Below are positions 9,021 through 40,771 of a DNA stretch of 64,000 nt, piece by piece. The stretch comes from a virus, in the IMG/VR virus record IMGVR_UViG_3300023049_000574, positions 81,522 to 145,521 of that record; one strand, given 5' to 3'. Positions within the stretch are counted from its first letter, which is position 1, and each line of letters begins with the position of its first letter. Position numbers and translations under genes: made by a program. The notes under the pieces are model-generated. The model did no database searches. It had not been told where the DNA came from and was given only the letters and a program-made list of their open reading frames with translations.

Positions 9021-9079
9021 GTTGTTTATTATTTTAATTTATATATTAAAAGTAAAAGTTCATTTTTAATATATAGGGT

Positions 9080-21168: not shown

Positions 21169-21172
21169 AATC

Positions 21173-21553: not shown

Positions 21554-21581
21554 ACTTTTTTTAATTTTATAATATATTAGT

Positions 21582-22681
21582 ATGTTTAAAATAATATTCA
21601 AAATAGCAGACTTTGCTTCTAAGGAAATAAAAAGGGATTTTAATATTGATCAAATATTAGAAGATTCCGAAAAAAAGTTTGATGATATAACAGAATATAA
21701 TCAATATGTACAAGTAATTGAAAGGATATTCGAAAAAAACCAAAAACTAAATTTATACGGAAATGATTATAGTATCAATGATTTAAAAACCATTACTACA
21801 TCTAATTTATCCAATATAATATTAGAAGTTACTGTAATAGAATTTACTCCCCCAATAGATTGGGATCTAATAAATAAAGAATTAAATAGTAATAACAATT
21901 GGTATTTTACCTATGGTACAGGAACGACCAACCTACATGGTAATACTACTATGGGTGGTGGAACACAACAACTAACGAATAATTATAATAATGCAGTATA
22001 AATTAACATATGATGTAAACAGTTGCTCTAAAGAATTAAAAAGAGATTTTAATATTGATTCTGTTATGAGTGAAGATGATTTATCTTTTTCTACATTAAA
22101 AGAATTTAAGTCCTATGTGGATCTTTTAAAAGAAATACAAAACGATAATTCTAATATAACTATCAATGATATTATATTCAGAATAAATCAACTAAATTAT
22201 TCTATTTATGATAATACTACCTTTTGTATCATTAAGCTTTATTGTGTAGATGATAAGTATATAGACGAGGATGATGATAGAGGTGAGAATGTTTATAAGT
22301 ATAGCTCCACGAATATAGATTCTTTAATACAAGCTTATACTAAAGCAGTTAATAGTCCTATATAATATGGAAGAAACTAATTACAAAGTATGTTTTATAT
22401 TATCTAATAAGAATCAAAAAAATATACTAAGAGATTATAATCTTAACCTTATTGATAAAGATAATTTCAAGAATGAGATATATTTCACTTCCCCATTAGA
22501 TATGAAAACTTATTTAGAGTTTTATAAAAAAGGAGATAGGGTAAATTTCAATGATATGTTATTTTATATTGAAGATATTTCATGTAATATGACAGATGGT
22601 AAGATTAATTTTGATATTAAGTTATTATATTTTAATACTCTTGAAGAAGATGGAAGTATGTACGGAGAAGTGTGGAGGTAA
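21582..22681 (+). other. Three tandem paralogous hypothetical genes (21582-22001, 21991-22365, 22367-22681)
   Basis: Shared near-N-terminal SKE(I/L)KRDFNID / KNILRDYNLN. Confidence 0.55.
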
Positions 22682-23100
22682 TGAAAAGAATTTCACCAAA
22701 ATATATTAAAGAACTAAACGAAAACGAAATATTTGTTTTTGGTAGTAATGAGGGCGGTAGACACGGAAGGGGTGCTGCTAAGTTAGCCTTAGATCAATTT
22801 GGTGCTATATACGGACAAGCCGAAGGTTTACAGGGATCTTCATATGGTATTCCCACTAAAGACAAAACAGTAAAAATTACTCTTACTACAGAAGAAATCC
22901 AAAAGTATGTTGATAATTTTATTACCTTTGCGATTGATAACAACCATTTAATATTCCTAGTAACGGAAATAGGGTGTGGTTTAGCGGGGCATGATCCAAG
23001 AGACATTGCGCCTCTGTTTAAGAAAGTGAAAAGTGTAAAAAATATTTATTTACCCGAAAGGTTTTGGGATAATTTAGATCTCTATGAAAGTATATTATAA
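22681..23100 (+). CDS. Conserved phage protein, Macro-domain-like (FVFGSN family)
   Basis: FVFGSNEGGRHGRGAA...YGIPTK...FLVTEIGCGLAG. Confidence 0.65.
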   Translation: MKRISPKYIKELNENEIFVFGSNEGGRHGRGAAKLALDQFGAIYGQAEGLQGSSYGIPTKDKTVKITLTTEEIQKYVDNFITFAIDNNHLIFLVTEIGCGLAGHDPRDIAPLFKKVKSVKNIYLPERFWDNLDLYESIL

Positions 23101-23146
23101 AATAAAAGATGAGTTTTCGGAGTTAGATTTTTAAAAAAATAATAAT

Positions 23147-23154
23147 TATATTTG
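23147..23154 (+). promoter_or_regulatory. Bacteroidota-type -7 promoter box upstream of leader 1
   Basis: TATATTTG = TAnnTTTG. Confidence 0.55.
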
Positions 23155-23196
23155 CAAAATAATTAAACAAAAGACAAAAAGTTTTATATATAGAGT

Positions 23197-23256
23197 ATGA
23201 AAATAATTAATGTAAATAGTTCGGTATCACGTATAACTTCTAGGAGTAGAGGGTGA
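23197..23256 (+). CDS. Ser/Arg-rich leader peptide MKIINVNSSVSRITSRSRG (putative attenuator peptide)
   Basis: 19 codons with AGT, TCG, TCA, TCT, AGT and CGT, AGG, AGA; 3' end AGTAGAGGG is complementary to the terminator 5' arm. Confidence 0.8.
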   Translation: MKIINVNSSVSRITSRSRG

Positions 23257-23283
23257 TATTACTATGTACATAACTTATATAGG

Positions 23284-23315
23284 AAAAGCCTTCTACTTTA
23301 GTAGAGGGCTTTTTT
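23284..23315 (+). terminator. Attenuator-type intrinsic terminator before tRNA cluster 1
   Basis: GCCTTCTAC-TTTA-GTAGAGGGC followed by TTTTTT. Confidence 0.9.
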
Positions 23316-23324
23316 CATTTATAT

Positions 23325-23404
23325 GCTCCTGTAATCGGCTCTAGCTACGAACTAGATACCCGTAATCGGAATTGAAAATGTGGGTTCGAGTCCCCCCAGG
23401 AGTT
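23325..23404 (+). tRNA. Non-canonical D-armless tRNA-Arg(ACG)-like gene
   Basis: Acceptor GCTCCTG/CAGGAGT; anticodon arm TCTAG-CTACGAA-CTAGA; T loop TTCGAGT; only 8 nt between acceptor and anticodon arms; 23-nt variable segment. Confidence 0.7.
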
Positions 23405-23412
23405 CAAAACAC

Positions 23413-23501
23413 GGAGAGGTGGCAGAGCTTGGTTTATTGCACTAGTCTTGAAAACTAGCATACTGTAAAAGGTATCGAGGGTTCGAATCCCTCCCTCTCC
23501 G
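23413..23501 (+). tRNA. tRNA-Ser(TGA)
   Basis: GGAGAGG/CCTCTCC, CTAGT-CTTGAAA-ACTAG, long variable arm, GGTTCGAATCC, G73. Confidence 0.95.
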
Positions 23502-23506
23502 CAAAT

Positions 23507-23595
23507 AGTAGGGTGCATGAGTGGCTTAAGTGACTTGCTTGGAAAGCAAGTGATCGTGTAAAAGCGATCCGTGGGTTCGAATCCCACTCCTACTA
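23507..23595 (+). tRNA. tRNA-Ser(GGA)
   Basis: AGTAGGG/TCCTACT, CTTGC-TTGGAAA-GCAAG, long variable arm; atypical A1-U72 and A73. Confidence 0.85.
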
Positions 23596-23599
23596 CAAA

Positions 23600-23688
23600 G
23601 GTGAGTTGGCAGAGTGGACGATTGCGCTTGTTTGCTACACAAGTGATCGTGTAAAGGCGATCCGAGGGTTCGAATCCCTCACTCACCG
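23600..23688 (+). tRNA. tRNA-Ser(GCT)
   Basis: GGTGAGT/ACTCACC, CTTGT-TTGCTAC-ACAAG, long variable arm, G73. Confidence 0.92.
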
Positions 23689-24562
23689 CTAATAAACAAA
23701 AGGGTTATTATTGATATAATAATTAAAAAAGTAATGGGAAATAATATTAAAAAAATAGACATTAAAGAGTTTAGAGAAAAAGGATACTTACAAGAAGTTA
23801 ACCGTATGTTTTTACATCCATTGGGATTAGTATTATCAGTATCAGTTGATGATAATGCTAATGAAAAATTAGATGGTATTTGGGATTATAGAGATGATGA
23901 AGAAGGGATCATTTATGATATAGCTAACTCAGATACAGATAGACAAAATAGATTCAAAAAGAACATATCATTCATCAGCGATGAGTTAGAAGGAAGAAAG
24001 GAAAGGAGAAAGGAAATCCTTGGCTTCGATATAGAAAAAGTAAAATAGTTATGGAAGAGTATAATAAAAACACGTATGTTGAGAATATAAAGATACAAGG
24101 TTATCTCACTAAGGAATATGCTATTCATAAAAATGGGGAAGTTAGAGAAAAGATAGATCGTTTAATGGATGTAATTAACAACCAAAGAAAAGAAAGAGAT
24201 ATCGAGCGTTGGGAAAATCTTAATATGGAATTCAAAGAACCATGGGATGTTCCTTCGCTTCCGAGAGATGAAGAATTAATGAATAATTATGTAATTCCTG
24301 CATTATATAGATGTGGTGCTATAGCTAAAAAAGACTTAAAGAAAGACCATTATTATTTCGGGAAGTATAGAAACAGCAATTATGGTAAATGGAATGGTGA
24401 AAAATTTGAAATACAAAGATATGAATGGAATGTATTAGTTGATGATGATTGTTTTCACTTCGAAGACGATGACGGATTCGCATTATTTGTTCCTATAAGA
24501 GAGGTTACTGAAAAGGAATTCTTAGATAGAGAATTAAATATATAAGAAAAAGAACTTTTATA

Positions 24563-24982
24563 ATGAAGAAGATAAAGAATTTCGAAGATTTCATAAACGA
24601 ATCAATATACGGTGCTGACGTAGCCGATCCTATGGTAGAAAAAGAATGGGATGATCTATACGAAGAAGCCAAAGAAGAACCAATTAAATCTAAGATCAAA
24701 GAGATGTTAGTTGAGATATATAAAGATAAAGACACTTTAGTTAAAGTTGCAGACCTTTTTGAATGGAGTGATGGATCTAATGGTATCATTAACTTCAATG
24801 AATTAGACCACTTTTTAACAGACGTAGGATATAAATGCTACGCAGATGATCCTTCTAATATAGAAGACCTAGAAGATTTCAAAAAATGTATCCTATATGC
24901 ATATGCTTCTACGGATTTAGGATATAAAGGAGAAAAACATAGAGATCATCAATATGATCCTAATAACGAATTTTCTTGGTAA
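24563..24982 (+). CDS. Hypothetical protein with MKKIKNFE N-terminus
   Basis: MKKIKNFEDFINE. Confidence 0.55.
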   Translation: MKKIKNFEDFINESIYGADVADPMVEKEWDDLYEEAKEEPIKSKIKEMLVEIYKDKDTLVKVADLFEWSDGSNGIINFNELDHFLTDVGYKCYADDPSNIEDLEDFKKCILYAYASTDLGYKGEKHRDHQYDPNNEFSW

Positions 24983-25001
24983 TTTTTAGTACTTTTGTGT
25001 C

Positions 25002-25544
25002 ATGAACACAAAATACGTAGAAACTTATATTAATAATATTCCTTCAGACTTACCTAATATTATTAATTGGGAAGAAAGAGAAGATGCGCCTAGAAAGGAG
25101 ATTTTCATGGCAAATGAGGAATTGAGTTATACCTATGGTATGGGTAGAGGAATTAGAACATATGATTCTGTACCCATGATACCTTTTGTCAAGGATGTAA
25201 TGGATAAGATCAATTCGGATTATAACTATAACTTAGATATCTGTTTCTTAAATTATTATAAAAATGAAAAAATGTGGTTGGGTTGGCACTCTGATGACAG
25301 CCCTGAGATCGATCAAACTGAACCTATTGCGGTGGTCAGCATTGGCGCAGAAAGAGATATTTGGGTAAAGACTAAAGACTATAAAGGAGTCATTCCTGAT
25401 GAATGGAGATTTAACCTGAAAAGTGGATCTTTATTCATGATGTTAGCAGGATTTCAAGATAATCATTTACATAAAATTCCTAAATGGGATAAGAAATGTG
25501 ATTGGAGAACATCATTAACATTCAGGAAATATAAGAAAATTTAA
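25002..25544 (+). CDS. AlkB-family 2OG-Fe(II) dioxygenase
   Basis: LNYY...GWHSD...HKIPK...RTSLTFR. Confidence 0.9.
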   Translation: MNTKYVETYINNIPSDLPNIINWEEREDAPRKEIFMANEELSYTYGMGRGIRTYDSVPMIPFVKDVMDKINSDYNYNLDICFLNYYKNEKMWLGWHSDDSPEIDQTEPIAVVSIGAERDIWVKTKDYKGVIPDEWRFNLKSGSLFMMLAGFQDNHLHKIPKWDKKCDWRTSLTFRKYKKI

Positions 25545-26528
25545 TACTTTTTTCTTATATTTGTACCATGGACATACTATTAGACTACACAGGAGAGAAA
25601 GGAATCGGCTTTAAAGCTGCTAACTTTTACTTAGAAAACGATCAATCTATCTTCTTGTTAGGATATGATACGTTAGCTGATTTATATGTAGTGCTGAATA
25701 TCAAAGAGAATAACGAAAAGTTCTATTGGTGTCAATGTAAGATTTTCAGAGATGAGAAACACTATGAAGAAATCATCAATAATCTAACTCCCGATTCTTT
25801 ACATCAAGTGACTTCTGTATATCAAGATGGATATCCTGATGGGTTTTTTGATAACGTTAATAAAGTTAATTCACAGAAATTGGATTACTTCCTTACTGAT
25901 TCGACATTAGAACAATACAACTATCTAAAAGATGCGGATTTATATCTAGAACATAGTTATAGTAAGTAGAACTATTAAAACCAAGTTTATAATGTGTTTA
26001 AAGGTGATAATTTTTTGATTGGTAACAAGCATAAATTCAGGGAAGTAAAATGCTATGTTGATTAACTATTACTAATGTTTGAATATAAATAATAATGGTT
26101 ATATTTGTATAAATTATAATAAAAGGTGCAACATTATAATATAATAAACTTTATATAATATTATGACTTTTTTAACTTTTTTACACACATTAATAGATAT
26201 TTTCCTACTTATTGTAGCACCTTTGATGATACTTTCATACGAAGTATTAACGTTCAGTGATAAGATAATAGGAAAGACTAATGAGGACGGAGTAGTTTCG
26301 CCTTTTTATTCTATGTGCGAATCTATGTATTTGTTATGGATTGTAATGGCTTATTTGTTCTTAGAGAATAGAAACGCAGTAATAATATTAGTGTTAATCA
26401 GTATTTTAGGAATCTTCTTTGGGAAGTATAAAGCCTTTAATATCTTTGATAATATCTTATCTATAATAATAGTACTTTATGTAGTAATATTGAACTTTAA
26501 ATATTTTTAAACTAAGAACCTAGAAAAC

Positions 26529-27128
26529 ATGATTACAAGTATATCGAAAGAATTGAACCCAATTGAAATACCTTTCTTTGAGGGTGAGGTTAGTATGCTA
26601 CCTTTTGATTTAAGTGATTTATCAACTCTACCTATAGAGTTTAGACAGACAGCAAAACAAATGATTAAAAACTTACCGAATAAGGTAGGAGAGGCGTTCT
26701 TAACTATACATGGAAAGTTTGTTAAAAAAACTAAAACATTAAGACGTGGCGCACCCCATATCGATGGTAACTATTTAAAAGAAGTTGCTTCTTGGGGAAA
26801 TGGTGGTGGAAACGGATGGAAGGTCGGTGAAAATGGTATGCAGTTAACAAGTAAAGAACACGCTATTTCTTACGAGAATAAGAAAGGTGGGATGTTAATT
26901 GCTTCTGATTACTCGGCTTGTAAAGGATGGAATGGTGTATTTAATGATAAAGCAGGAGTCGGAGGCGATTGTAGCCATTTAAACTTAGATGATGGTTTTA
27001 TGTTAGAAGCTAATAAAGTATATTATAGTAACTCTCAGTTCGTACATGAAAGTCTACCATTAGATAAAGACGTACATAGAGTTATGTATAGAATCACATT
27101 ACCTATTGAACACGAATTTAAAGCATAG
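26529..27128 (+). CDS. Putative 2OG-Fe(II) oxygenase-fold protein
   Basis: PHIDG...VHES...R...R. Confidence 0.5.
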   Translation: MITSISKELNPIEIPFFEGEVSMLPFDLSDLSTLPIEFRQTAKQMIKNLPNKVGEAFLTIHGKFVKKTKTLRRGAPHIDGNYLKEVASWGNGGGNGWKVGENGMQLTSKEHAISYENKKGGMLIASDYSACKGWNGVFNDKAGVGGDCSHLNLDDGFMLEANKVYYSNSQFVHESLPLDKDVHRVMYRITLPIEHEFKA

Positions 27129-27488
27129 TAATATGAAAGTAACAATAGATAGAACGTTTAATTATGGTTTTAGGCAAATATGGCTCAGAAAGGATTTTGA
27201 GCTTCCCTACACCCCTTTCTATGGTATGTGGATCATAGATCAAGATAATGACCAAGAAATCAGTTTAGAACTAGTTAATAACAGCTATGTAGCTACTATG
27301 ATCAACTATTACCCAACAGAAGAAAAAACTACTATTGATATTAGGGAGGTTTGGAAACAGCCTGTAACAGAAGAAACAGTTGATGATATATTAGAAAGTT
27401 ATACTAAGGCGGGTTGGGAAAGAATGGATCTTACTGATGCTGAGGAAATGAAAGAATTTATGCACGAACAATATTTAAAAACCAAGTA

Positions 27489-28046
27489 ATGGGAAAATTA
27501 GACATAAGAATGGATGAAATACTTGATAGTATTTCTGAAAACGGAATAAATAATTTATCAAAAGAAGATAAGTTATTTTTAAAATATGAATCAGATGGAA
27601 TGGATTATCAAAGTATAATCTATAAAATACATATAGAACTTAATCCTAAAGCAGAAGAAGAAAGGAAGATTAGTAATGATATACTTAATATTTGTTTTCC
27701 TACTCCTGAGGAAGAAGGAACAACAGAGGATGAATTTCTTTATCGTTATAAATTGAGTGGTAAAATATATGCTTCTCTTGGTGAGAATTGGACTGAGGGG
27801 GAATATGATTTTAATTTAGGTCCTTCAACAACGAGAAACAAGTTGAGTGATGCTATTTTTATTGACGAATATTTAAAAGATATTTGCCGAAAAATAAACA
27901 TTAGTGAAAACACATTTGATGTTGGTATCGCTGAAAACGTTCATATGATATATGCTAATTCTGAGGACGAAGCTAAAAAAATAATTGGTCTTATTTTAAA
28001 GGAGATCAAAGCTGATGGATTTGAAATTGAATACGCAAAGACATGA
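27489..28046 (+). CDS. Hypothetical protein with N-terminal DUF6576-like motif
   Basis: MDEILDSISENGINNLSKEDKLFL. Confidence 0.55.
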   Translation: MGKLDIRMDEILDSISENGINNLSKEDKLFLKYESDGMDYQSIIYKIHIELNPKAEEERKISNDILNICFPTPEEEGTTEDEFLYRYKLSGKIYASLGENWTEGEYDFNLGPSTTRNKLSDAIFIDEYLKDICRKINISENTFDVGIAENVHMIYANSEDEAKKIIGLILKEIKADGFEIEYAKT

Positions 28047-28447
28047 TAAGAGAAGACTCAAAATATGTAGTTAAAGATCTTGGTTTAAAAGATATTGAAT
28101 ATTATGATGCTACTATCGATTATAAAACTAAACTAATCGCTTTGATTAAGTTTATCAGTGATAAAAAGGCTTGGTATTATATATGTGATGATTTTATTGT
28201 AGCTTATCATAAGAAAGAAGGTATAGTGATTAGTACAAGTGATGTAGTAGATTCGTTATCTATTCCCGATATTAGGAATAAGCTATCCCCTATTACACAT
28301 ATGATCTCTTTGTTGAAGATAGATAATTGTCCTCAGGGATATATTAAGGATTCAATTAAGTCAGCAGAGAAGGCAGTAAAAGATTTAGCACAGTTTTAGT
28401 AAACTTTTGATAAGTTTTTCAATAAGATATTTAAAAGAAATATAGAT

Positions 28448-29020
28448 TTGGAACTACTTATTATTACAGGAATGCCCTATTCGGGAAAAGGCACACAATG
28501 CGAATTTTTAAACGACTACTTAGGATATAAGCATATCTCTATGGGAGATGTTTGTAGAGCAGAAAAAGAAAAAGGAACAGAACTCGGTAGAATAATGTCT
28601 GAGTATCATGAAAAGGGTAACTTAGTTCCTAATAAATATATCGAAGAAATATTTGAAAATCTTATTATAGATAATATTGATGAAAAAGGAATCATCTTAG
28701 ATGGACACCCTAGAACACTTTCACAAGTAGATCAGATAGTTAGTATGATCGATAAAATTCACGTACAGAACGTAATCAATATTGATGTTGAAGAAACAAC
28801 TCTTTTAGAAAGAGCTAAAGAACGAGCTAAAAATTCTGATCGCCCTGATGATAAAAACCCCGCCATTCATCTAAAGCGAATAGAAGTATTTAAAGAAAGC
28901 ACTCTACCTGCAGTTGAATATATGAGTAAAATAATGCCATTTGTGAACATTGATGGTAATGGATCAGTTGAAGAAACAAGAGAGAAGATAAAAGAAAACA
29001 TATTTATCTTTGAGGATTAA
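28448..29020 (+). CDS. adk: Adenylate kinase family protein
   Basis: GMPYSGKGTQ P-loop, HISMGD..R, ILDGHPRT..Q, R.DD. Confidence 0.88.
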   Translation: MELLIITGMPYSGKGTQCEFLNDYLGYKHISMGDVCRAEKEKGTELGRIMSEYHEKGNLVPNKYIEEIFENLIIDNIDEKGIILDGHPRTLSQVDQIVSMIDKIHVQNVINIDVEETTLLERAKERAKNSDRPDDKNPAIHLKRIEVFKESTLPAVEYMSKIMPFVNIDGNGSVEETREKIKENIFIFED

Positions 29021-29030
29021 TATATACTCT

Positions 29031-29843
29031 ATGAAGTATATAAATAAATTCAATGAAAAGGTAACCGCAGCATTATTACCCACTGAACTAAGACATAAAA
29101 ACCTTTTATATCATTCTACTGATTTAGAATCATTTAAGAAAATCATAGAAAGTGATAAATTATACGGAACAGTTCAGTATGATTGGGGCATATCTACTTC
29201 TAGAAATAAACATTATGCTTTTGGGAGAAACGACACTGATTATGATGTGATACATGACGGTGGTGATGTTCAATTAATATTAGATCGAGATTTAGTTAAA
29301 AGACACCATAAAATAAAGGCTTATGATTGGGAAGAATTTAAAACAACTAAAGGTAAAACAGGTGTATATCATGATTATATACAAGCAGAAGATAAGATAT
29401 TAGCTAATTCATTAAAAAATGTAACGAAATATATAGTAGGTATTCATATAGTTAAAGACAAATTTATTGATGATATATTTGAAGACCCAATTATTAAAGA
29501 CAAACTTTTAAGTAAGGATATAGTTGTGTTTAATGAAGATTGGGAAATAATATTTAATAGCAAAGTTAAAAATACTGATACCGAATTCGAAAAAATTAAA
29601 GATTCTAAATTCAATAGATTACCTGATTTAACTTTATCGGAAATAGTAAATAATTGGGATGACGTTAAAGACATAGAAGATGATAATATTGAAACTATTA
29701 AATATTATGTAGACAACAAAGAACTATTACCTAAACAAATTCTAACATATGACAAAAAGGGATTATCTGATGGTTATCATAGACTGATAGCTATGAAGAT
29801 AGTAGGTGTAGATAAGTTTAGGTATAAAATTGATAATTGGTAA
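29031..29843 (+). CDS. Protein with MKYINKFNE N-terminus, ART-like and ParB-like motifs
   Basis: LYHST...ISTSR...; C-terminal LSDGYHRLIA; TAATATATA at 29018. Confidence 0.45.
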   Translation: MKYINKFNEKVTAALLPTELRHKNLLYHSTDLESFKKIIESDKLYGTVQYDWGISTSRNKHYAFGRNDTDYDVIHDGGDVQLILDRDLVKRHHKIKAYDWEEFKTTKGKTGVYHDYIQAEDKILANSLKNVTKYIVGIHIVKDKFIDDIFEDPIIKDKLLSKDIVVFNEDWEIIFNSKVKNTDTEFEKIKDSKFNRLPDLTLSEIVNNWDDVKDIEDDNIETIKYYVDNKELLPKQILTYDKKGLSDGYHRLIAMKIVGVDKFRYKIDNW

Positions 29844-29864
29844 TTAATTCTTATATTTGTTTTT

Positions 29865-30179
29865 ATGAAAGTATATATAGCAAGTCCTTACACTAAGGGC
29901 GACACTGCAATAAACGTTAAACGACAATTAGATACATTTGATATACTAATGGATAAGGGATATTTTCCTTTTGCTCCATTGTATAGTCATTTCCAACATA
30001 TGGCACACCCAAGACCATACGAAGATTGGATGACATATGATTTAGAATGGATATTAGTGTGTGATTGTGTACTACGTTTAGATGGCGAAAGTAGTGGTGC
30101 GGATAGAGAAGTCGCACATGCTAAAGAACACGGAATCCCCGTGTATTATTCATTAGAAGAATTATACGCAGCTACTTAA
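29865..30179 (+). CDS. Nucleoside 2-deoxyribosyltransferase-like (DUF1937/DUF4406-type) protein
   Basis: VYIASPY...CDCV..L..ESSGADRE...A...GIPV. Confidence 0.75.
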   Translation: MKVYIASPYTKGDTAINVKRQLDTFDILMDKGYFPFAPLYSHFQHMAHPRPYEDWMTYDLEWILVCDCVLRLDGESSGADREVAHAKEHGIPVYYSLEELYAAT

Positions 30180-31279
30180 TGGATCTAACTAAATATAATA
30201 ACGATCTAAGTGATGTCACTGATTATTTATCAGAACTAGGATTATCTAAGTTAAAGGATAAACATGATGGTAGATACAATAAATATAGTGTTCCTAAAGC
30301 AGACTTCGAAATACATGTATATAGTTTTATAAAGCAAGGTGACTCAGATTTATTTAAATATTGTGGTGATGAATTATTAACTTTAGATATTGTTAGAAGG
30401 TTCATGAATATAAGTCATGAAGAATCCAAAGAATTCACAAAAGATATTAAAAGAGATATCCATATCATTAATATAATACCTAAAGGATCTAGAGCAGGAA
30501 TGGTTACTATAACCAATCTAGAAGATTTAGATAACTACTTAGTGGAATATATTCCTTTTTATAAAAGGGATACTAGAATAAATAATATTTTAAAATTATA
30601 AATGGATTTTTTCAAATTAATTTCAAGAGAAAATGTAGGTAAGACTTTCCATATTAAGTTCTTACCCGCTATTGGATCAGATGATATAATAGATAACTAT
30701 CCTGTACCTTTTGGTAAGTATCATAAACAAATATACGTTTCTAATGCTATGGTTAACGGAGAGTTTAAACAACTTGTATATAATCAAGTGATGAGGGACT
30801 TTTTACAAATATTCTTTCTTGGGACGAGGGGATATATCATCCATCCTGATCCTGAAAAATTAGATTGTGATATAACATATAATCATCATAGAATAAATAC
30901 TACTCTTGAAAACGTATATTTAGATTTAGAGAATAGATATGATGTTACAAGAGATGAGTTAATATATGTTGACTATCCTGATAATGTACACCCATTTAAT
31001 ATATTATATCCTGCTAATAATGAATATATAATTAATCCTTATAGCTTTAAACTTACTGTAAGGGAGATAACTCTTTTTGGAACAAGTGGTTTATTAGATT
31101 TGGGAAAAATCGAAACGGTTAAATATGATCCTAATTTAATAATTAAAGATCAGAGTGATTCTACTATTAACGAAGCAAACGATTTTATGAAAAGCAAACC
31201 TAGTTTAGAAGGATTGGCTAAGTATTATGTGGAAGCATACCACAGAGATAAATTCATCGATGATGTTTTAGAAGGTTAA
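30179..31279 (+). other. Two hypothetical genes (30179-30601, 30602-31279) with C-terminal RDxKI-type motif
   Basis: End KRDTRINNIL and HRDKFIDDVL. Confidence 0.5.
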
Positions 31280-31524
31280 TTAGAATAAGATATGATGAAA
31301 AAGATACTATTAAAAAATATCTTAAAAATTTATTGAATATTAAATAAATTTTCTTATATTTACAGTCCTAATAAAAAGAGGTAAAGTAGAAACTTCTTAT
31401 TCTGACTTTTTAATAAGGAGGAATATTGTATAGAATGCTAGAGTAAACTAGAAATCTCTTTTTATTTTTAAACTTTATTATATTTACATCCTATAAGGAG
31501 AAGAAAACTTTTATATATACAACA

Positions 31525-31596
31525 ATGACAACATTAAATAACATAGCAATTATAGCGAGAGCGAGAGCTTTTAACAGACCCCGAATTGGAGTGTGA
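31525..31596 (+). CDS. Ile/Ala/Arg-rich leader peptide MTTLNNIAIIARARAFNRPRIGV (putative attenuator peptide)
   Basis: ATA GCA ATT ATA GCG AGA GCG AGA GCT run; 3' end CCGAATTG is complementary to the terminator 5' arm. Confidence 0.8.
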   Translation: MTTLNNIAIIARARAFNRPRIGV

Positions 31597-31620
31597 CTAT
31601 AATTAATATGTCAATTTTTA

Positions 31621-31658
31621 AAACCTCAATTCGGATTTCCGAGTTGAGGTTTTTTTTT
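31621..31658 (+). terminator. Attenuator-type intrinsic terminator before tRNA cluster 2
   Basis: CCTCAATTCGG-ATTT-CCGAGTTGAGG followed by 9 T. Confidence 0.92.
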
Positions 31659-31698
31659 GTTATAGATCATCGGGTCGCAAATTGCGACCACAATAAAT

Positions 31699-31775
31699 AC
31701 TGACGTATCCCCGATGTCTTATATACATCATGAAGGTAGCGGTTGAAAACGTGGGTTCGAATCCCACCGTCAGTA
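31699..31775 (+). tRNA. Non-canonical D-armless tRNA-Ile(TAT)-like gene
   Basis: ACTGACG/CGTCAGT; GATGT-CTTATAT-ACATC; GTGGG-TTCGAAT-CCCAC; 7-nt linker in place of a D-arm. Confidence 0.7.
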
Positions 31776-31783
31776 CAAAATAT

Positions 31784-31863
31784 GCATCAGTATCCGAGGG
31801 GAGCTTCTAACTCCTTATCCGTAATTGGAGATGAAAATGTAGGTTCGATTCCTATCTGGTGTA
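31784..31863 (+). tRNA. Non-canonical D-armless tRNA-Arg(TCT)-like gene
   Basis: GCATCAG/CTGGTGT; GGGAG-CTTCTAA-CTCCT; GTAGG-TTCGATT-CCTAT; 8-nt linker. Confidence 0.7.
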
Positions 31864-31873
31864 CAAATTTTAT

Positions 31874-31948
31874 GGGGTGTAGCACAGGCGTAGCCTAAAT
31901 CGTTTGCAACGATTTCAGAACAACAGGGTTCGATTCCCTTACACTCCA
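31874..31948 (+). tRNA. tRNA-Ala(TGC) with aberrant D-arm
   Basis: GGGGTGT/ACACTCC with G3:U70 and A73; AATCG-TTTGCAA-CGATT; T loop TTCGATT. Confidence 0.75.
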
Positions 31949-31954
31949 CTAAAT

Positions 31955-32031
31955 GGTTCGGTAGCTTAATTGGATAAAGCAATCGGTTTCTAACCGATAG
32001 AGTGAGAGTTCGACCCTCTCCCGAATCACCA
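31955..32031 (+). tRNA. tRNA-Arg(TCT), canonical, CCA encoded
   Basis: GGTTCGG/CCGAATC, D-arm GCTT-AATTGGATA-AAGC, ATCGG-TTTCTAA-CCGAT. Confidence 0.95.
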
Positions 32032-32038
32032 AATATAT

Positions 32039-32101
32039 GGGGGTTTAGCTCAGTCTGACCGTAAGCGGCACATTTGCAATGTGCGTCACACATCGATTCG
32101 A
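32039..32101 (+). pseudogene. 3'-truncated tRNA-Ala(TGC)
   Basis: 5' half and GCACA-TTTGCAA-TGTGC intact; sequence breaks at TTCGA with no 3' T-stem or acceptor strand. Confidence 0.7.
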
Positions 32102-32696
32102 AGAAGTGTAAAAATATAGAATATGAAAATGAAACTAAAAATACTAACGTTAGATGAACTAAAAGAAAGAATTAAAACATTCGATAAAAAATATGGAAAA
32201 TATTATGAAAAAGAATAACAATAACTTAGGAGGACACCGCTACCAAGCATTGATACTCGACACCAAAGGAAACTAAAGAAATATTCTAAGAACTTCTTAG
32301 AGATGTTTAACTTTTTCCTCAATAGTCATAGGAATGGGATATTAACCTTTTCGGGAACAAATGATTTCAGTGTCGAGTATAAACAAGATGGATATGATAG
32401 TAGGTTATGTTTTAGGAAGTTTGATAATGGTGATTACCAAAACAAAGTTGTACATACTAAACACCCTAATATACTATTTAGTGTAATTAAAGGAAAGAAG
32501 TCATGGGGTCTATTTGTTAATGAATGGTCAGATGGAATCGTTGAATCTAGCTTTACTATCGATGAAATTAAAACAGTATTCGATGAACAGAATATCAAAG
32601 TTCCCGATCCATTATGGAAAGACTTTTTAAACACAATTGGTAGAAAGAAAAGGATAAGAAATCAAAAATACTACAATGAGCTTATTAAAAATAGTA

Positions 32697-33491
32697 TTAT
32701 TTCCAATACTTAAAACTCTTAACAGTCATTTCTGATCCGTTATGAGGATGTCCCTTATTAACACTCGTACCTATAATCGGTACTAAACCACCTTTGATTC
32801 TTTCTAAAATGTTCTTATTAGTTATCTTTCTAACTAAGAAACCATCGTAATATAATTCGATTTTATCATCGTTCCATATAATAGCAAATGATACATCACG
32901 TCCAAATTCGTTTGGAATATAGTGAGTGTGTGCGCCAATATTTTTAGCGTTATCACCATAGTCTTCACCATAATGTATATTGGTCTGTGGTTTAGATTTA
33001 GTTGCTTTATTTTTTGTATAAATTTCTATAACATCTATTTCAGGTAGAACTTTATAATCCAATTCTTTTTCTGTGCCATCTGTTACGAACCATAATGGAG
33101 CATGCCAAATACCTGTGGCTGCTTTCATATTAACTATAACTTCCATAGCACCTTTAAAGTATGTTTTCTTACTAAATAAGATACCTGTTTTAAAGTCCAT
33201 TGTCTTATTGTTCTTCTTGTTTAACTTAGGGCTAAATTCTGTTGATAACCTTACACCACCTTCTACAAGGTTAGTACATGACTTATCGTTATATGATAGA
33301 TCAGCATCGTCTGAATGTGTTCCCCACCATAAAGTTTTTTGCCACTGTTTAGTTAGTTTACTGAAGTCCTCATGTACATCAAGTGTTAATCCCTTAGGAT
33401 CAAAATCTTTAACCTTACTAGAAAGTCTTCTTCCTATGTTATTTTTATATAACAAGTAATAATTATATAACTTTTCTTTTAAATTTCCCAT
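32697..33491 (-). CDS. Glycoside hydrolase family 16
   Basis: Catalytic EIDVIE (ExDxxE); W..D.I..Y.DG. Confidence 0.85.
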   Translation of the reverse strand: MGNLKEKLYNYYLLYKNNIGRRLSSKVKDFDPKGLTLDVHEDFSKLTKQWQKTLWWGTHSDDADLSYNDKSCTNLVEGGVRLSTEFSPKLNKKNNKTMDFKTGILFSKKTYFKGAMEVIVNMKAATGIWHAPLWFVTDGTEKELDYKVLPEIDVIEIYTKNKATKSKPQTNIHYGEDYGDNAKNIGAHTHYIPNEFGRDVSFAIIWNDDKIELYYDGFLVRKITNKNILERIKGGLVPIIGTSVNKGHPHNGSEMTVKSFKYWK

Positions 33492-33528
33492 ACTTTATAT
33501 ATTATTTTTTCAATTTAATATATAGCTT

Positions 33529-34101
33529 ATGAAGTATATTAAACCCTTTAATGAATCTATTAAATTCCCTGAGATTGATGATATGTATACTAGACACAAT
33601 CAGCTAAAGGTAAATAAAGATAATATTCAAGAAGAAATAAATGACATAGAACACAGACTTATTAAAACACAAGACGAATATATTAGTAAAATCGAAACTA
33701 TATTAAATAAAGTTGTAGAACATTTTAGAATGAATGTTACATCAAACAAGGGGATAATGATAATAAAAACACAAAATGATATTATACGACATGATACAAA
33801 AGAAAATGATGATGTATTCAATTTGTCTAACTTGGTTGATAATTTTAAATTTAAAACCGCTTATCCAGATAATCCAATTGAGGTAACACAAGAAGAATAT
33901 GTGTTATATGATATTTTTGTAGAAAGGTCTATTAAAGACGGAAACAACGGAAACACAAATGTATTTTATTTGATTCCTACTTATGATGAAAATGAACTTC
34001 ATCTTCATTTAACTTATATTCATGTTAAGGATTTGATGAAGTTATATGAAAGATTAGTAAAGAATATTTCAGGTAATATGTTAATGAAAATAAATAATTA
34101 A
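33529..34101 (+). CDS. MKYIKPFNE-tagged protein, single-module member of the KKLNE family
   Basis: N-terminal tag, coiled coil, L..LY..L...I C-terminal helix; TAATATATA at 33516. Confidence 0.55.
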   Translation: MKYIKPFNESIKFPEIDDMYTRHNQLKVNKDNIQEEINDIEHRLIKTQDEYISKIETILNKVVEHFRMNVTSNKGIMIIKTQNDIIRHDTKENDDVFNLSNLVDNFKFKTAYPDNPIEVTQEEYVLYDIFVERSIKDGNNGNTNVFYLIPTYDENELHLHLTYIHVKDLMKLYERLVKNISGNMLMKINN

Positions 34102-34105
34102 ACTA

Positions 34106-34399
34106 ATGAAAAATATAAAAACATTTGAATCATTTATAGACGATCAGGGTAATATCAAAGACTTCAATCATAAAACATATATTATAATTTCCAAGAAACA
34201 TATTAATAATTTATATTTATCTCAATTAGATCCACCAAGGTTTACGGGAGAGAGTAGCGCAATGAGGAAAACTTATCATTTCCCTTCATTAGATGATGCT
34301 TTAGAATATAAATCTAAACACCCTAAAAGAAATAAACATTGGAGTATACACGAATATAACCCAACTAAAACGATTAGTATGGGTAATACGGTTGGTTAA
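34106..34399 (+). CDS. MKNIKTFE-tagged small protein
   Basis: N-terminal tag. Confidence 0.55.
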   Translation: MKNIKTFESFIDDQGNIKDFNHKTYIIISKKHINNLYLSQLDPPRFTGESSAMRKTYHFPSLDDALEYKSKHPKRNKHWSIHEYNPTKTISMGNTVG

Positions 34400-35104
34400 T
34401 TAATTAGACTTTCTATAATCGATTAAGAAATCATATAATTTTCTAATATTTTCATAGCTTGTACTATTCCTAAAAGCGTTTAGATCAGTAACCATTAACT
34501 CACCGTGTAGATCAAATAACCTTTTCCAATCATCAAATACGCCTTTATATTCAGGGTTATTTTCTACAAATCTTTCAAAGTTTGGTAAATTAATAACATC
34601 ACCAATAAATATTTCAGATCGTGCTATATTACTTTGGTTTAAAGATCCATCAACTTCTATAATATTCTTAGAGTCTCGATAAGCCTTTCCGATCTCTTTA
34701 GCTGAATGTAAATTCAATAAAGCTGTTTCCATATACTTAGATAGTGGTTCAACTAAGACATCATTACCTAATGTGGGTATTATTAATTCTTCGAAATTCT
34801 CTAATGCTTTTTCGGCATTTTTAGTCTTAATCACTGTGATTAGATCTTCTCTTATCTTCTTAATAAGAGTATCAAGATTTTTTATGAACTCTTCGCTCTC
34901 ATTATCCTTCTTCCAATCTCTGAAACCATTTGGGTTATCTATAAATTCATCTTGCTTCATATTCCAATCGAAATTATGTAAATAATGATGTCCGTATTCA
35001 CCTCTTAGTGTTTTTAATACATCTTTAGGGAATGAATTAAAATCAACTAAATCCTTTGATTCTATATTATATTCGTTTATCTTTGTAATTAAATATTTAC
35101 CCAT
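34400..35104 (-). CDS. Hypothetical protein (MGKYLITKINE)
   Basis: TAATATATA upstream on the minus strand. Confidence 0.5.
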   Translation of the reverse strand: MGKYLITKINEYNIESKDLVDFNSFPKDVLKTLRGEYGHHYLHNFDWNMKQDEFIDNPNGFRDWKKDNESEEFIKNLDTLIKKIREDLITVIKTKNAEKALENFEELIIPTLGNDVLVEPLSKYMETALLNLHSAKEIGKAYRDSKNIIEVDGSLNQSNIARSEIFIGDVINLPNFERFVENNPEYKGVFDDWKRLFDLHGELMVTDLNAFRNSTSYENIRKLYDFLIDYRKSN

Positions 35105-35118
35105 ATACTATATATTAA

Positions 35119-35889
35119 ATGATAGATCAATTAATACAAGAACTTTATGATGAGGATGGTATTAATCTAGAGATCTCAGCAGGAGACAAATTAGATAATA
35201 CCATTAAGTATGTGACAGATAAATTGATTGCTCATATACCCGAAGATTCTTATACTAAAATCAATAGGAATTATATAGACATTAAAATAGAAAACAATAG
35301 TCGTTATTATAGTAACGTAAAGACAAATGAAGAATATAGAAACCAATTATTTGCAAACGTTAAGTCTGTTGAAATCCATAAATTTTACCCACAAGTAGTT
35401 AAAAATTTACTTGTATTAAATTTAATTAATGGTTATGACGAAGAAAGGAGAGAATCGTCTGTTGTGTTCCAAGATCATAAAAAGGTATTTCTCTTTTTAA
35501 TCAACAGATTTACTGAACAGGATACAGGATGTAAACATATCAATGCTTATATAAACTCTTTTTATGTGTTTGTCCAAGTACAAACATCTCCTTATTTAAG
35601 AGGAATAAACGAGTTATTTTTAAAAGAATCTAAAGATAACTTGTTGTTTTATATAGACTCTTTGTATTACAAAGAAGTAAATAAGGGTCTTATCAACCAA
35701 TTAGATAGGCTTGGGTTAAATTATAGTATAGAAGATATTGATTATATATACATCGGTGAAGGTATTCAGTTTTATGAAAAACGAAATGATGAAATTTATA
35801 TGAAGGGGTTCAATCCAAAAAAACAGGAAGAAGTAGAAAATATGATTAAAGTTAGAGAAAGGGATAGGAAAATAGATTCTCTGTTTTAA
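35119..35889 (+). CDS. Hypothetical protein, possibly degenerate PolB palm; C-terminal RDRKIDSLF
   Basis: SVEIHKFYP / YINSFY / FYIDSLY in PolB motif order. Confidence 0.3.
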   Translation: MIDQLIQELYDEDGINLEISAGDKLDNTIKYVTDKLIAHIPEDSYTKINRNYIDIKIENNSRYYSNVKTNEEYRNQLFANVKSVEIHKFYPQVVKNLLVLNLINGYDEERRESSVVFQDHKKVFLFLINRFTEQDTGCKHINAYINSFYVFVQVQTSPYLRGINELFLKESKDNLLFYIDSLYYKEVNKGLINQLDRLGLNYSIEDIDYIYIGEGIQFYEKRNDEIYMKGFNPKKQEEVENMIKVRERDRKIDSLF

Positions 35890-35899
35890 TATATACTCT

Positions 35900-36277
35900 A
35901 TGAAGTATATAAAACCAATCAATGAACATTTTGATCATCTTCCTAAAGATGAAATTATTGATAGATTAGAACGCCTTCTAACTATTGCATATATGCAATT
36001 AAGAGATGAGCTTATATATAGTAATGTTAATCAACTTTTATTAGATGAGGGGATAAAAAGCTCTGAGTTTATTAAAGTAAATGATGAAGGTTGGGCAATA
36101 GAAGGTTATTATTATACTATGAAAGAAGGTGAAGATGAACCTGCTTATCTTTATGACAGAAAAGAATTAAAACATTTTGATAAAGATATACTTGCTAAGA
36201 TACTTGAATTTCTTGGTAAAGAAGAGAAGTTTTCTCGTATCTTAAACCAAGAGATGTTTAAAAAATTAAATAAGTAA
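35900..36277 (+). CDS. MKYIKPINE-tagged module protein
   Basis: Ends EMFKKLNK; TAATATATA at 35887. Confidence 0.55.
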   Translation: MKYIKPINEHFDHLPKDEIIDRLERLLTIAYMQLRDELIYSNVNQLLLDEGIKSSEFIKVNDEGWAIEGYYYTMKEGEDEPAYLYDRKELKHFDKDILAKILEFLGKEEKFSRILNQEMFKKLNK

Positions 36278-38236: not shown

Positions 38237-40771
38237 ATGAGCCGTATCAAAACACTTAGGAAATTTAAAAATTATGAAAGTCAGATAAAAACTATTGATG
38301 CCGAATTAGAAGGTAAGGATGGTTATATCAAACGAATGCTTATTAAAAGAAAAGAAGGTATTAGGGATAATATTGAACAAGATATCGTAAGATTATTACA
38401 TAGTGTTTTAGATGATAATGGAATAGAAATAGGATCAGATGATACACCTGTTATCCAATTATTGAAAGATAAGAATATTGAAACTAATTTAACAGAAATT
38501 GTTAATATTCCAATAAGACACGGGAATGAAGAAACTAACATTAATGAAATATATCTTTATCGGGGTGATTGTCTTATTATGTTCGAAGGTGAAAAATATA
38601 GGGAATTAACACATAATATAAAATTAGAAAAGATTTTAGCTATTTATAAAGCTATGATAAGTCTAATTAATAGACCTCTTTTGAAATCATTAAATGAAGA
38701 TACTACTAGTGATTATAAAAAGATTTTAACAGAACTTGAACGTGCTGATAAAAATCTTAATGACTTTCGTGAAAAACTAATTGATAGTGTAGAGAAAGTA
38801 GTAATGGGTATTATTAAAAAATATGAATTACCACTATATGCTGATGTAGCTAAGGAATTAAAAGGGAGGGGAATTGATTTAAAAATTTATATAGACGGAG
38901 AAAACGTAGATATATCATATGATATAGATGATGATTCCTTTTATATATTCGATCAAAGAGGAGCATACCATAGTTTTTTAAGTACTATGCACATAGAACA
39001 TTTAATTCAATTATATGATCAACTATTAGCATCACTTAATAAAAATGCTTTCAAGAAACTAAATGAAGGTTTAAAAGAAGACTATTTAGAATCAGAAAGG
39101 GACATAAATGTTTACAGAGCAAATTACACTAGATTACAAAAAGAACTTTCAAAAAAGTATTATGATCTAATGAATATGATTGTGAAACAATATGATATTG
39201 ATCTACAACCCGAAGCACCGATATCATTTTCTATAATAGATAAAGTAATTGAGAAAGATGAGGATAATGGTTTAATCGAATTGAAAAACAAGGAGTTAAC
39301 AGCCATAGGTGATAATCACCATAAATTCATATTAACAGATTTGAGATATTGTCCTTACGAAGAAAAATTTCAAGTAAGTAAATTATACGGAGATACACAT
39401 ATGGTTACATATCCTTCTAGTATGCAATTTGATCAACTATATCCTATATATGAATCTATTATTAAAGCTTTAAATAAAAAACCATTAGAGAAATTAAACG
39501 AAAGTAATATCAAGGAATTAGAAGAAATGTATTTGAAGAATTTACATAAAGGTGAAGGAGATCATTATGAAATACAGAAGGAAGTACAAGATTCATTAGA
39601 AAAATTATTGGATATGATCATCGATAAATATGATTTAGATCTATCAGACCAAAAAGGACTCTTAGATGAATTAGAGAAAAAGGATAAAGATAATACTCTT
39701 TTAGATTTAAGAGGAAGGTTTTTTAATATGTTCGAAACAGAACACACTTTTTATTTCGTTGATATCCTTAAAACAGAAACAGGAGGTTATTATATTAATA
39801 TAAGAAACGAAGAAGATGGTGCGATAAAAAGAACTAAAGTTAGTTTCACAGGCTTCCATTTCTTATACCCGATATATACCGCCCTCATAAGTACTATTAA
39901 TAAAGAGGCATTTAGATCGATGAACGAAAGAGTGCTTTCTAGAGAAAGTTTCCTTATTAGAGAATCTTTTATACAAGAAGTAGAAGAATATCAAAATAAA
40001 GTAAAGGAGATAGAAGGGAAGATCAGTGATATGAAAAGAAAGAAGGAAGAACTTGATGAAAAATACAAAGGTTCTAAAGATAAGATAGAGGGTCATATTG
40101 TGGATATATGTGAATACATTAAAAAAGAGTTAATTGAATTTAATCAAGACTTACATATTTATTTAGAAGATGATCAAGGAAAAATGGGAGATATTATGGC
40201 AGCTTTAGGTATATCAAGTGGTGCTTATATGTTTGTAGATCACGGAGATGTGATGTTCGATATAGAAGGTGATGATACGTATGATATAACAGAGTATAAT
40301 GTTGACAAACTTTTCGAAGTCTTAAAAATACTTATATCAATACCTAAAGTGAGTGCTTATTATAACAAAGATATGTTTAAGAAACTTAATGAGTTATATG
40401 ATAATGATGTAGCTGACACAAAAAGTGAGTATTTAATTAAAGCTAATAAGTTACTTAATGGAGTAATTACTTCATATAATTTAATAGAAGAAGGCGAAGA
40501 TAATGTATCACTAAAAGAAAAATTACAAGAAAAGGGAATTGATATTAATCTCTCTGATATCTATTTATACGATCAAGCTAGAGTCCAAGACATTATTGCT
40601 AAAAAAGCACCATCGGGTTATTCCTTTTTATTGAAATGTATTGAGTCTAAAACAGGTGATGTATTTGAAATTGAATTAGGACAAGTAGTTAGACGAAAAA
40701 CTATGGTTAGAATATTTAATACTTTATCAAAGGCTATTAATGCTTTTTTCTTGAAGCAATTAAATGCCTAA
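38237..40771 (+). CDS. Six-module putative polyprotein
   Basis: LKSLNE, FKKLNE, LEKLNE, FRSMNE, FKKLNE, LKQLNA spaced about 120-155 aa apart; TAATATATA at 38224. Confidence 0.6.
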   Translation: MSRIKTLRKFKNYESQIKTIDAELEGKDGYIKRMLIKRKEGIRDNIEQDIVRLLHSVLDDNGIEIGSDDTPVIQLLKDKNIETNLTEIVNIPIRHGNEETNINEIYLYRGDCLIMFEGEKYRELTHNIKLEKILAIYKAMISLINRPLLKSLNEDTTSDYKKILTELERADKNLNDFREKLIDSVEKVVMGIIKKYELPLYADVAKELKGRGIDLKIYIDGENVDISYDIDDDSFYIFDQRGAYHSFLSTMHIEHLIQLYDQLLASLNKNAFKKLNEGLKEDYLESERDINVYRANYTRLQKELSKKYYDLMNMIVKQYDIDLQPEAPISFSIIDKVIEKDEDNGLIELKNKELTAIGDNHHKFILTDLRYCPYEEKFQVSKLYGDTHMVTYPSSMQFDQLYPIYESIIKALNKKPLEKLNESNIKELEEMYLKNLHKGEGDHYEIQKEVQDSLEKLLDMIIDKYDLDLSDQKGLLDELEKKDKDNTLLDLRGRFFNMFETEHTFYFVDILKTETGGYYINIRNEEDGAIKRTKVSFTGFHFLYPIYTALISTINKEAFRSMNERVLSRESFLIRESFIQEVEEYQNKVKEIEGKISDMKRKKEELDEKYKGSKDKIEGHIVDICEYIKKELIEFNQDLHIYLEDDQGKMGDIMAALGISSGAYMFVDHGDVMFDIEGDDTYDITEYNVDKLFEVLKILISIPKVSAYYNKDMFKKLNELYDNDVADTKSEYLIKANKLLNGVITSYNLIEEGEDNVSLKEKLQEKGIDINLSDIYLYDQARVQDIIAKKAPSGYSFLLKCIESKTGDVFEIELGQVVRRKTMVRIFNTLSKAINAFFLKQLNA

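Follow-up and report, generated by a model that had tools for sequence, protein, structure and literature searches.

Why phages carry transfer RNA (tRNA) genes, and how these genes are controlled, are old questions; the usual answers are matching of codon usage and escape from tRNA-cleaving defences, and phage tRNA genes are generally treated as constitutively expressed. Both questions are raised by a locus in an uncultured phage, IMG/VR virus record IMGVR_UViG_3300023049_000574, a 145.5-kb contig (30% G+C) whose final 64 kb were analysed and are called the window here. At this locus a short leader open reading frame (ORF) and an intrinsic terminator precede a cluster of Ile, Arg and Ala tRNA genes: does reading of the leader decide whether the tRNA genes are transcribed? 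The original prediction, made from the letters of the window, was that it does, by attenuation. The analysis described here indicates that the unit is likely a ribosome-mediated transcription attenuator (of the leader-peptide, trp type) gating a phage tRNA operon. The whole contig has only two tRNA clusters, both inside the window, a Ser cluster (23325-23689; locus 1) and the Ile/Arg/Ala cluster (31699-32101; locus 2), and each carries such a unit.

Leader codons and the tRNAs behind them

The leader of locus 2 contains the codon run ATA GCA ATT ATA GCG AGA GCG AGA GCT, beyond which lies a further AGA codon (31576-31578). All that the original prediction stated about the letters of this unit holds: the leader, the codon run, the further AGA, the complementarity between the end of the leader and the 5' arm of the terminator, and the spacing of these parts. 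Its claim of a match at the level of single codons also exceeds chance. Codons cognate to the anticodons UAU, UCU and UGC fill 9 of 22 leader positions, versus 2.26 expected from phage codon usage (contig ORFs of at least 120 codons; binomial P=1.8e-4); the same count is reached by 20 of 38,984 22-codon windows of phage genes, and the same cognate fraction by 3 of 662 short ORFs. GCG makes up 0.27% of the codons of this genome, yet the leader has two copies. The leader of locus 1 behaves likewise towards its own cluster, with 6 cognate codons in 18 versus 1.30 expected (P=1.2e-3), and the match does not cross over in the other direction: the leader of locus 2 has 1 codon in 22 for the anticodons of the Ser cluster, which is not significant.

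The two leaders also share a start signal. The exact 11-mer TTTTATATATA has two copies in the window, one at each leader, with spacings of N4 and N5 between its ATATATA and the ATG. Across the whole genome, 34 ORFs of at least 40 codons have ATATATA exactly 4 nucleotides (nt) ahead of the start codon, and other spacings are rare; the ATATATA motif is a marker of genuine gene starts, as promoter for near-leaderless mRNAs or as initiation signal.

Terminator and antiterminator

The terminator of locus 2 combines a G+C core stem (31624-31649) with nine consecutive T (31650-31658), and it ranks first among the terminator-like sites of positions 20000-36000. About 12 terminator-like hairpins occur in the whole contig; only the two in front of the tRNA clusters follow an ATATATA motif at a distance of about 100 nt, and the others are at gene ends. 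From the terminator to the first tRNA the gap is about 8 nt at locus 1 and about 40 nt at locus 2, where no copy of either promoter-like motif listed in Table 1 lies between terminator and tRNAs. With a terminator upstream and no recognisable promoter motif before them, the tRNA genes therefore appear to depend on terminator read-through.

A competing structure is formed by the end of the leader. Region 2, the 5' strand of the antiterminator, lies 12 nt past the codon run and 5-13 nt before the stop codon; within it CCGAATTG (31581-31588) is exactly complementary to CAATTCGG (31627-31634) in the 5' arm of the terminator (region 3), and RNAduplex gives -11.3 kcal/mol for the pairing of region 2 with this arm versus -4.5±2.0 for shuffled sequences. 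Locus 1, although unrelated in sequence, obeys the same pairing rule: the last codons of its leader, AGTAGAGGGT (23245-23254), pair with the 5' arm of its terminator at -14.6 kcal/mol, a value reached by 0 of 500 shuffles. The minimum-energy fold (RNAfold) of both leaders contains the terminator; when the 3' arm of the terminator (region 4) is omitted, the last codons of the ORF pair with the 5' arm at both loci, AGUAGAGGGU with GCCUUCUACU at locus 1 and CCGAATTGG with UCAAUUCGG at locus 2. Because the upstream strand of the antiterminator ends a few nt before the stop codon or overlaps it at both loci, a terminating ribosome would cover this strand, and a ribosome at least 12 nt upstream, on the codon run, would not.

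With the Rfam models, no T-box match was found in positions 31300-32300 up to an E-value of 10, nor window-wide at the gathering score; no other leader, riboswitch or cis-regulatory family of Rfam was found, and weak chance matches (PyrR, L10 leader, NsiR1) fell on the terminator.

Conservation in related phages

Relatives of the unit were reached solely through the family of the ORF at 32303-32713, homologues of which range from 83% to 44% identity. Searches for close relatives with the proteins at 30602-31279 and 38237-40771 (viral contigs) and at 29031-29843 (metagenomes) found none, and phrog_2072, the upstream neighbour of locus 1, occurs at 80 IMG/VR loci without synteny and without a comparable adjoining unit. 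Eight distinct homologous leaders were aligned: that of the window and those of relatives L096, L100, L103, L104, L106, L110 and L111. All eight keep the ATATATA motif, an ORF of 20-23 codons with a run of the ATA/GCN/AGA type, a stop codon 19-25 nt before a strong terminator, and tRNAs directly behind; insertions and deletions in the ORF preserve the frame. The nine-codon run of L096 is that of the window apart from the synonymous changes GCA to GCG and ATT to ATA, and codons at the N-terminal and C-terminal ends of the leader differ with amino-acid change.

The choice among synonymous codons is skewed. In the runs of the eight leaders, which share descent so that binomial figures are indicative only, ATA accounts for 21 of 22 Ile codons and GCG for 15 of 21 Ala codons; the corresponding shares in phage genes are 48% and 8.7%. 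Leader content also follows tRNA content. Two or three AGA codons occur in the run of each of the six distinct leaders that precede clusters with tRNA-Arg(UCU). The clusters of L103 and L110 consist of Met(CAU), Ile(UAU) and Ala(UGC) genes with no tRNA-Arg, and their runs, ATA GCA GCG ATA GCG ATA and ATA ATA GCG ATA GCG ATA, are without AGA; this loss of AGA may have been a single evolutionary event.

The antiterminator covaries. Over nine pairs and eight loci, 95.8% of alignment cells are paired, and compensatory double changes are present at four of the nine pairs (in 9 cells); in 500 column shuffles neither the observed pairing nor the observed covariation score was attained, and sliding the partner by one column lowers pairing to 52-65%. 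In RNAduplex, cognate pairs of leader and arm average -11.9 kcal/mol versus -7.4 for non-cognate pairs, and no permutation of the arms does as well.

Survey of units in large phages

A search with the profile of the downstream-ORF family yielded 67 IMG/VR loci in phages as large as 676 kb, and these loci were pooled with the earlier ones. For a unit to be counted, a terminator with a perfect stem had to lie no more than 260 nt upstream of a tRNA cluster, which gave 31 non-redundant units, and the leader was chosen by a fixed rule as the longest ATG-initiated ORF ending 15-35 nt before the stem. The distance from stop codon to stem in the units is fixed at 19-30 nt. Codons and anticodons match 208 times versus 118±10 when leaders and clusters are permuted (maximum 162 in 100,000 permutations), homologous units not being independent; the wobble rule used wrongly let UAU read ATG, which adds noise only. 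Taking one unit for each distinct amino-acid set (22 units), there are 155 matches versus 84±9. The last 30 nt of the ORF pair clearly with the detected 5' arm (z below -2) in 17 of 31 units.

Many survey leaders begin with M-x-x-x-N-N-I, like the MTTLNNI of the window, and then spell the tRNA set behind them: FEFDFFAAEADF precedes Phe, Glu, Asp and Ala tRNAs, AYEGAYGYEG precedes Tyr, Glu and Gly tRNAs, and TGTPTRPVAGT precedes Pro, Thr and Gly tRNAs. Two more units are present in a published huge-phage genome in GenBank (LR756502.1), where they are unannotated. The anatomy of the unit, its codon enrichment, the covariation of its antiterminator, the conservation of its ORF and the co-variation of leader codons with tRNA content are all computational results. 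The view of the original prediction that the unit is a modular, codon-matched combination of leader and terminator is borne out by both clusters of the window, by the start signal, by the antiterminator covariation, and by the joint variation of leaders and tRNAs among the relatives and the 31 units.

Proposed mechanism and alternative explanations

From this anatomy we infer that the leader is translated, that RNA polymerase is coupled to the translating ribosome, that stalling leads to read-through, and that tRNA supply is the signal. The ATATATA motif would set the start of transcription on the leader ATG or slightly upstream of it, and translation of the leader would follow immediately. 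If the ATA/GCN/AGA run is read fast, the ribosome would arrive at the stop codon and cover region 2; the terminator hairpin would then form and RNA polymerase would stop at the T-run, before the tRNAs. If ATA, GCG/GCA or AGA is decoded slowly, the ribosome would stall 12 to 35 nt upstream of region 2, which would be free to pair with the 5' arm of the terminator; this pairing would preclude the terminator, and transcription would continue into the genes for Ile(UAU), Arg(UCU) and Ala(UGC). The phage thus probably makes these tRNAs only when their codons are decoded slowly. Because the products read the stalling codons, the loop would be self-limiting, a negative feedback on decoding capacity. 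Rare codons read by wobble (GCG here; TCG and CGT at locus 1) would sharpen the sensitivity of the sensor. The setting, which is speculation, may be a shortage of particular host tRNAs during infection brought about by codon-usage mismatch, host shut-off or tRNA-cleaving defences.

Several points weigh against this proposal. This AT-rich genome uses ATA and AGA often, which makes part of the codon match cheap; the leader of locus 1 holds 4 of 18 codons of the Ile/Arg/Ala set (P=0.11, not significant); the third AGA (31576-31578) is too near region 2 to act as an inducing codon; and the sole gene here that would read ATA is a putative tRNA-like gene without a D-arm. An anti-antiterminator (1:2) helix is a further weak spot: locus 1 shows a clear hairpin (CUUCUA:UAGAGG; RNAfold), and the helix predicted by RNAfold at locus 2, AATTATAG:CTATAATT, is kept only partly in L096, with no conserved 1:2 helix found in the eight-sequence alignment. 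Clear pairing of the last 30 nt of the ORF with the 5' arm is lacking in 14 of 31 survey units (z above -2), permutation and binomial figures overstate independence because the relatives are phylogenetically related, and no close cultured relative was found among the GenBank phages searched.

The unit could also be an attenuator of the classical kind that senses amino acids, reporting starvation for Ile, Ala or Arg through uncharged tRNA, with the tRNA genes merely placed behind it and no feedback from their products. Its anatomy is identical to that of biosynthetic attenuators, and a stalled ribosome cannot distinguish a missing from an uncharged tRNA. Such a role is nevertheless unlikely: extra tRNA gives no relief from amino-acid starvation, which would leave the coupling without evident use; the codons are chosen for particular isoacceptors, with ATA nearly exclusive among Ile codons beside a UAU tRNA and the rare GCG favoured beside a UGC tRNA; and leader content tracks the tRNA genes present, AGA having been lost together with tRNA-Arg.

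The conserved M-x-x-x-N-N-I terminus, found across many phages, could reflect a function of the peptide itself, and relative L104 has a NusG-like gene; both would suit a hairpin that terminates or insulates constitutively, or that forms the 3' end of a gene for a small RNA or small peptide, with the tRNAs expressed by fixed leaky read-through or through a phage antitermination factor and the codon match without regulatory meaning. This arrangement is very unlikely, since it leaves unexplained the covariation of the 3' end of the ORF with the 5' arm of the terminator, the fixed 19-30 nt from stop codon to stem, and a variable middle of the peptide that tracks the tRNA set across 31 units. A spurious short ORF lying by chance beside a terminator in AT-rich intergenic DNA is hardly credible, frequent as short ORFs are and common as ATA and AGA are here, given P values of about 2e-4 and 1e-3 at the two loci with no significant cross-match, an ORF kept at eight loci with frame-preserving changes in length, and a survey association whose observed count was reached by none of 100,000 permutations.

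The tRNA genes of locus 2

The features of both loci are collected in Table 1. The list of tRNAs in the original prediction stands in part. ARAGORN calls two genes in the cluster, Ala(UGC) and the second Arg(UCU). The Ile(UAU) gene and the first Arg(UCU) gene are non-canonical tRNA-like genes: their acceptor, anticodon and T arms are normal, 6-8 nt replace the D-arm, and the extra arm has 21-23 nt; both score above the Rfam tRNA cut-off of 29 bits. The last, Ala-like gene is degenerate. The codon-level match for ATA accordingly depends on a structurally odd, putative tRNA-like gene, which occupies the same first position as the ARAGORN-called tRNA-Ile(UAU) of relatives.

Table 1. Sequence features of the attenuator-like units and tRNA clusters at loci 2 and 1 of the window
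Feature	Position	Strand	Details
Box TTATATTTACA	31478-31488	+	Resembles Bacteroidota -7 promoter box (TAnnTTTG type) in motif search; possible host-type promoter upstream of leader
Gene-start motif TTTTATATATA	31509-31519	+	Putative promoter or initiation signal; 5 nt before leader ATG; in 8/8 homologous leaders
Leader ORF, locus 2	31525-31596	+	23 codons plus TGA; peptide MTTLNNIAIIARARAFNRPRIGV; ATG at 31525, TGA at 31594-31596
Regulatory codon run	31543-31569	+	8/9 codons read by downstream tRNAs
Region 2, CCGAATTGG	31581-31589	+	5' strand of antiterminator; pairs with 31626-31634
Intrinsic terminator, locus 2	31620-31658	+	15-pair stem AAAACCTCAATTCGG/CCGAGTTGAGGTTTT, loop ATTT, then nine T; arms form region 3 (5') and region 4 (3')
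tRNA-like Ile, anticodon UAU (reads AUA)	31699-31778	+	Non-canonical, no D-arm, 21-nt extra arm; Rfam tRNA 35.5 bits
tRNA-like Arg, anticodon UCU (reads AGA)	31784-31863	+	Non-canonical; Rfam tRNA 33 bits
tRNA-Ala(UGC)	31874-31949	+	ARAGORN; G3:U70 in acceptor stem (read from sequence)
tRNA-Arg(UCU)	31955-32031	+	Canonical; ARAGORN; Rfam 66.9 bits
Ala(UGC)-like gene	32039-32101	+	Truncated/degenerate: UGC anticodon loop, degenerate T-arm (from sequence); full-length homologue in L103, 9008-9089 (ARAGORN)
Leader ORF, locus 1	23197-23256	+	19 codons, MKIINVNSSVSRITSRSRG; 4 nt past TTTTATATATA (23182-23192)
Terminator, locus 1	23282-23315	+	Second-best terminator-like site in 20000-36000
Arg(ACG)-like gene, odd	23325-23404	+	First gene behind the locus 1 terminator
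tRNA-Ser UGA, GGA, GCU	23413-23689	+	Locus 1

The D-armless tRNA-like genes form a family that comprises the copies at 23325-23404, 31699-31778 and 31784-31863 of the window, one in L001 (about 3025-3120) and those of L009-L015; the extra arm of 21-23 nt ends in TGAAAA(T/C), and the anticodons are those of Arg (ACG, UCU, and CCU in L096) or Ile (UAU). The odd Arg body (containing CCGTAAnnGGAGnTGAAAATGTGGGTTCGA) recurs, unannotated, between tRNA-Leu and tRNA-Pro in the Vibrio T5-like phage D260, and in 7 IMG/VR contigs with 31-51% G+C. At the Ile position the relatives vary, some having an ARAGORN-called tRNA-Ile(UAU) and others the odd form.

The tRNA-Ala(UGC) genes of three relatives (L100, 5742-5838; L103, 8908-9004; L106, 5222-5318) have about 22 inserted nt directly behind the anticodon, and ARAGORN reports them as 'tRNA-???' with the four-letter anticodons gcgg, gcag and gcgt; the insertion could be a short intron or a disruption of the anticodon loop. 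In L096, the closest relative, an inserted gene for 388 amino acids (8759-9925), with a faint match to HTH_28, separates the conserved downstream ORF from the tRNA cluster; it occupies the place that the canonical tRNA-Arg(UCU) and the truncated Ala-like gene have in the window, and may be a mobile or homing element of this tRNA region.

Neighbouring genes and genomic setting

The contig has a CheckV completeness estimate of about 58%, and PHROGs matches among its proteins are sparse; a ribonucleotide reductase, a piece of a DNA polymerase and a QueC-like protein are recognisable. The host is probably a member of Bacteroidota: a TAnnTTTG-like box is present, A/T-rich regions take the place of Shine-Dalgarno sequences before start codons, and relative L103 encodes a Por_Secre_tail protein. 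Sharing with GenBank phages is limited to the odd Arg tRNA body in Vibrio T5-like phages and the neighbouring ORF in three uncultured huge phages.

Matches to promoters of the sigma-70 type are not enriched (81 found versus 102 expected) and were not used. The box TTATATTTACA at 31478-31488 is not kept in relative L096, which makes its role uncertain. (T/A)ATATATA-N4-ATG, with sites for instance at 33491(-)/33529(+), 38237 and 35900, also occurs at divergent gene pairs merely 38 nt apart; this suggests a phage-specific promoter yielding near-leaderless mRNAs. Immediately upstream of the leader lies a candidate small RNA, a stretch of about 105 nt (31354-31475) that starts right behind a -7-like box of Bacteroidota type, TTATATTTACA (31354-31364), and has a T-run at its end: its identity to L096 is about 90%, above that of the surrounding DNA, and it contains AAGGAGGAAUAUUG and folds with the closing stem AAAAAGAGG/UCUCUUUUU (z=-2.1).

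The ORF downstream of the cluster (32303-32713, + strand) encodes a protein of 136 amino acids with homologues at loci L117-L183 and invariant residues that include G..H..GKKSWGLW; it matches no Pfam or PHROG family. It adjoins tRNA clusters almost always in large phages, with tRNAs within 2.5 kb at 64 of 67 IMG/VR loci and a same-strand tRNA ending at most 600 nt upstream at 41 of 53 loci, and may have a tRNA-related function.

A second type of leader, of 39-40 codons (MEKVYTYN…GAPAADYD…NGIVMHKLKV), is present in L108 (5338-5513) and L113 (5170-5200). Its ends are conserved and its middle, of Ala, Pro, Asp, Tyr and Gly, is variable. Behind it come a terminator and Asp tRNAs and, at a greater distance, tRNAs for Ala, Tyr, Pro and Gly; the distance from terminator to first called tRNA is about 160-220 nt and includes a tRNA-like gene with a large insertion.

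Relation to known systems and implications

The closest likeness is to the attenuators of amino-acid operons in Proteobacteria (trpL, hisL, pheL, leuL, thrL, and ilvL of ilvGMEDA), which have in common with the phage unit a short leader, regulatory codons, alternative antiterminator and terminator hairpins, masking by a ribosome at the stop codon, and an intrinsic terminator; in thrL and ilvL, as here, one leader reads several amino acids. The mechanism of pheL is summarised in PMC3082878. The phage unit differs in that it would control tRNA genes and not enzymes, so that the product itself relieves the stall, in the match of its codons to downstream anticodons at the level of isoacceptors, in being phage-borne with probably little or no 5' untranslated leader, and in the many differing codon checklists that are joined to one common N-terminal motif. 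The pheM leader of E. coli pheST, which encodes phenylalanyl-tRNA synthetase, is a case of leader-peptide attenuation of a component of the translation apparatus, keyed to cognate codons; it differs from the phage unit in that a synthetase protein is controlled, one amino acid is sensed and the system is chromosomal. The E. coli genes pheU and pheV were considered as a precedent with a Phe-rich leader and attenuator, and rejected: in the MG1655 sequence a promoter stands immediately in front of each tRNA, and upstream there is neither a leader ORF nor a terminator.

T-box riboswitches likewise exert terminator/antiterminator control, specific for a tRNA species, over translation-related genes; they differ in that the RNA itself binds uncharged tRNA, by means of its specifier codon and T-box sequence and with no ribosome, and they have no Rfam match here. 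The leaderless polycysteine short ORFs of mycobacteria, which are cysteine-responsive attenuators (bioRxiv 10.1101/834739), are alike in having a 5'-terminal short ORF whose codons set the response, and differ in organism, in having protein genes as targets, and in lacking a terminator/antiterminator pair matched to tRNA genes. A literature search found no account of leader-peptide control of tRNA genes, an absence that is unproven because most subscription journals lie outside the coverage of the search. The mechanism of attenuation is known; what would be new is its target and logic, product feedback on tRNA genes combined with a modular codon checklist.

It seems likely that large phages of Bacteroidota-like hosts share a widespread, unpublished class of modular attenuators, in which a conserved M-x-x-x-N-N-I N-terminus, an exchangeable codon checklist and a terminator/antiterminator switch place each tRNA block under product feedback on decoding speed. 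The phage would in this way top up those tRNAs that the host lacks or that defences cut, and the D-armless tRNA bodies may belong to the same counter-measure. If the proposed attenuation is correct, phage tRNA expression would be demand-driven and self-limiting, the reach of leader-peptide attenuation would extend from amino-acid metabolism to the tRNA pool, and the tRNA shortage that induces a given cluster could be predicted from the sequence of its leader. Being small, modular and portable, the units could serve as natural sensors of codon-specific decoding capacity.

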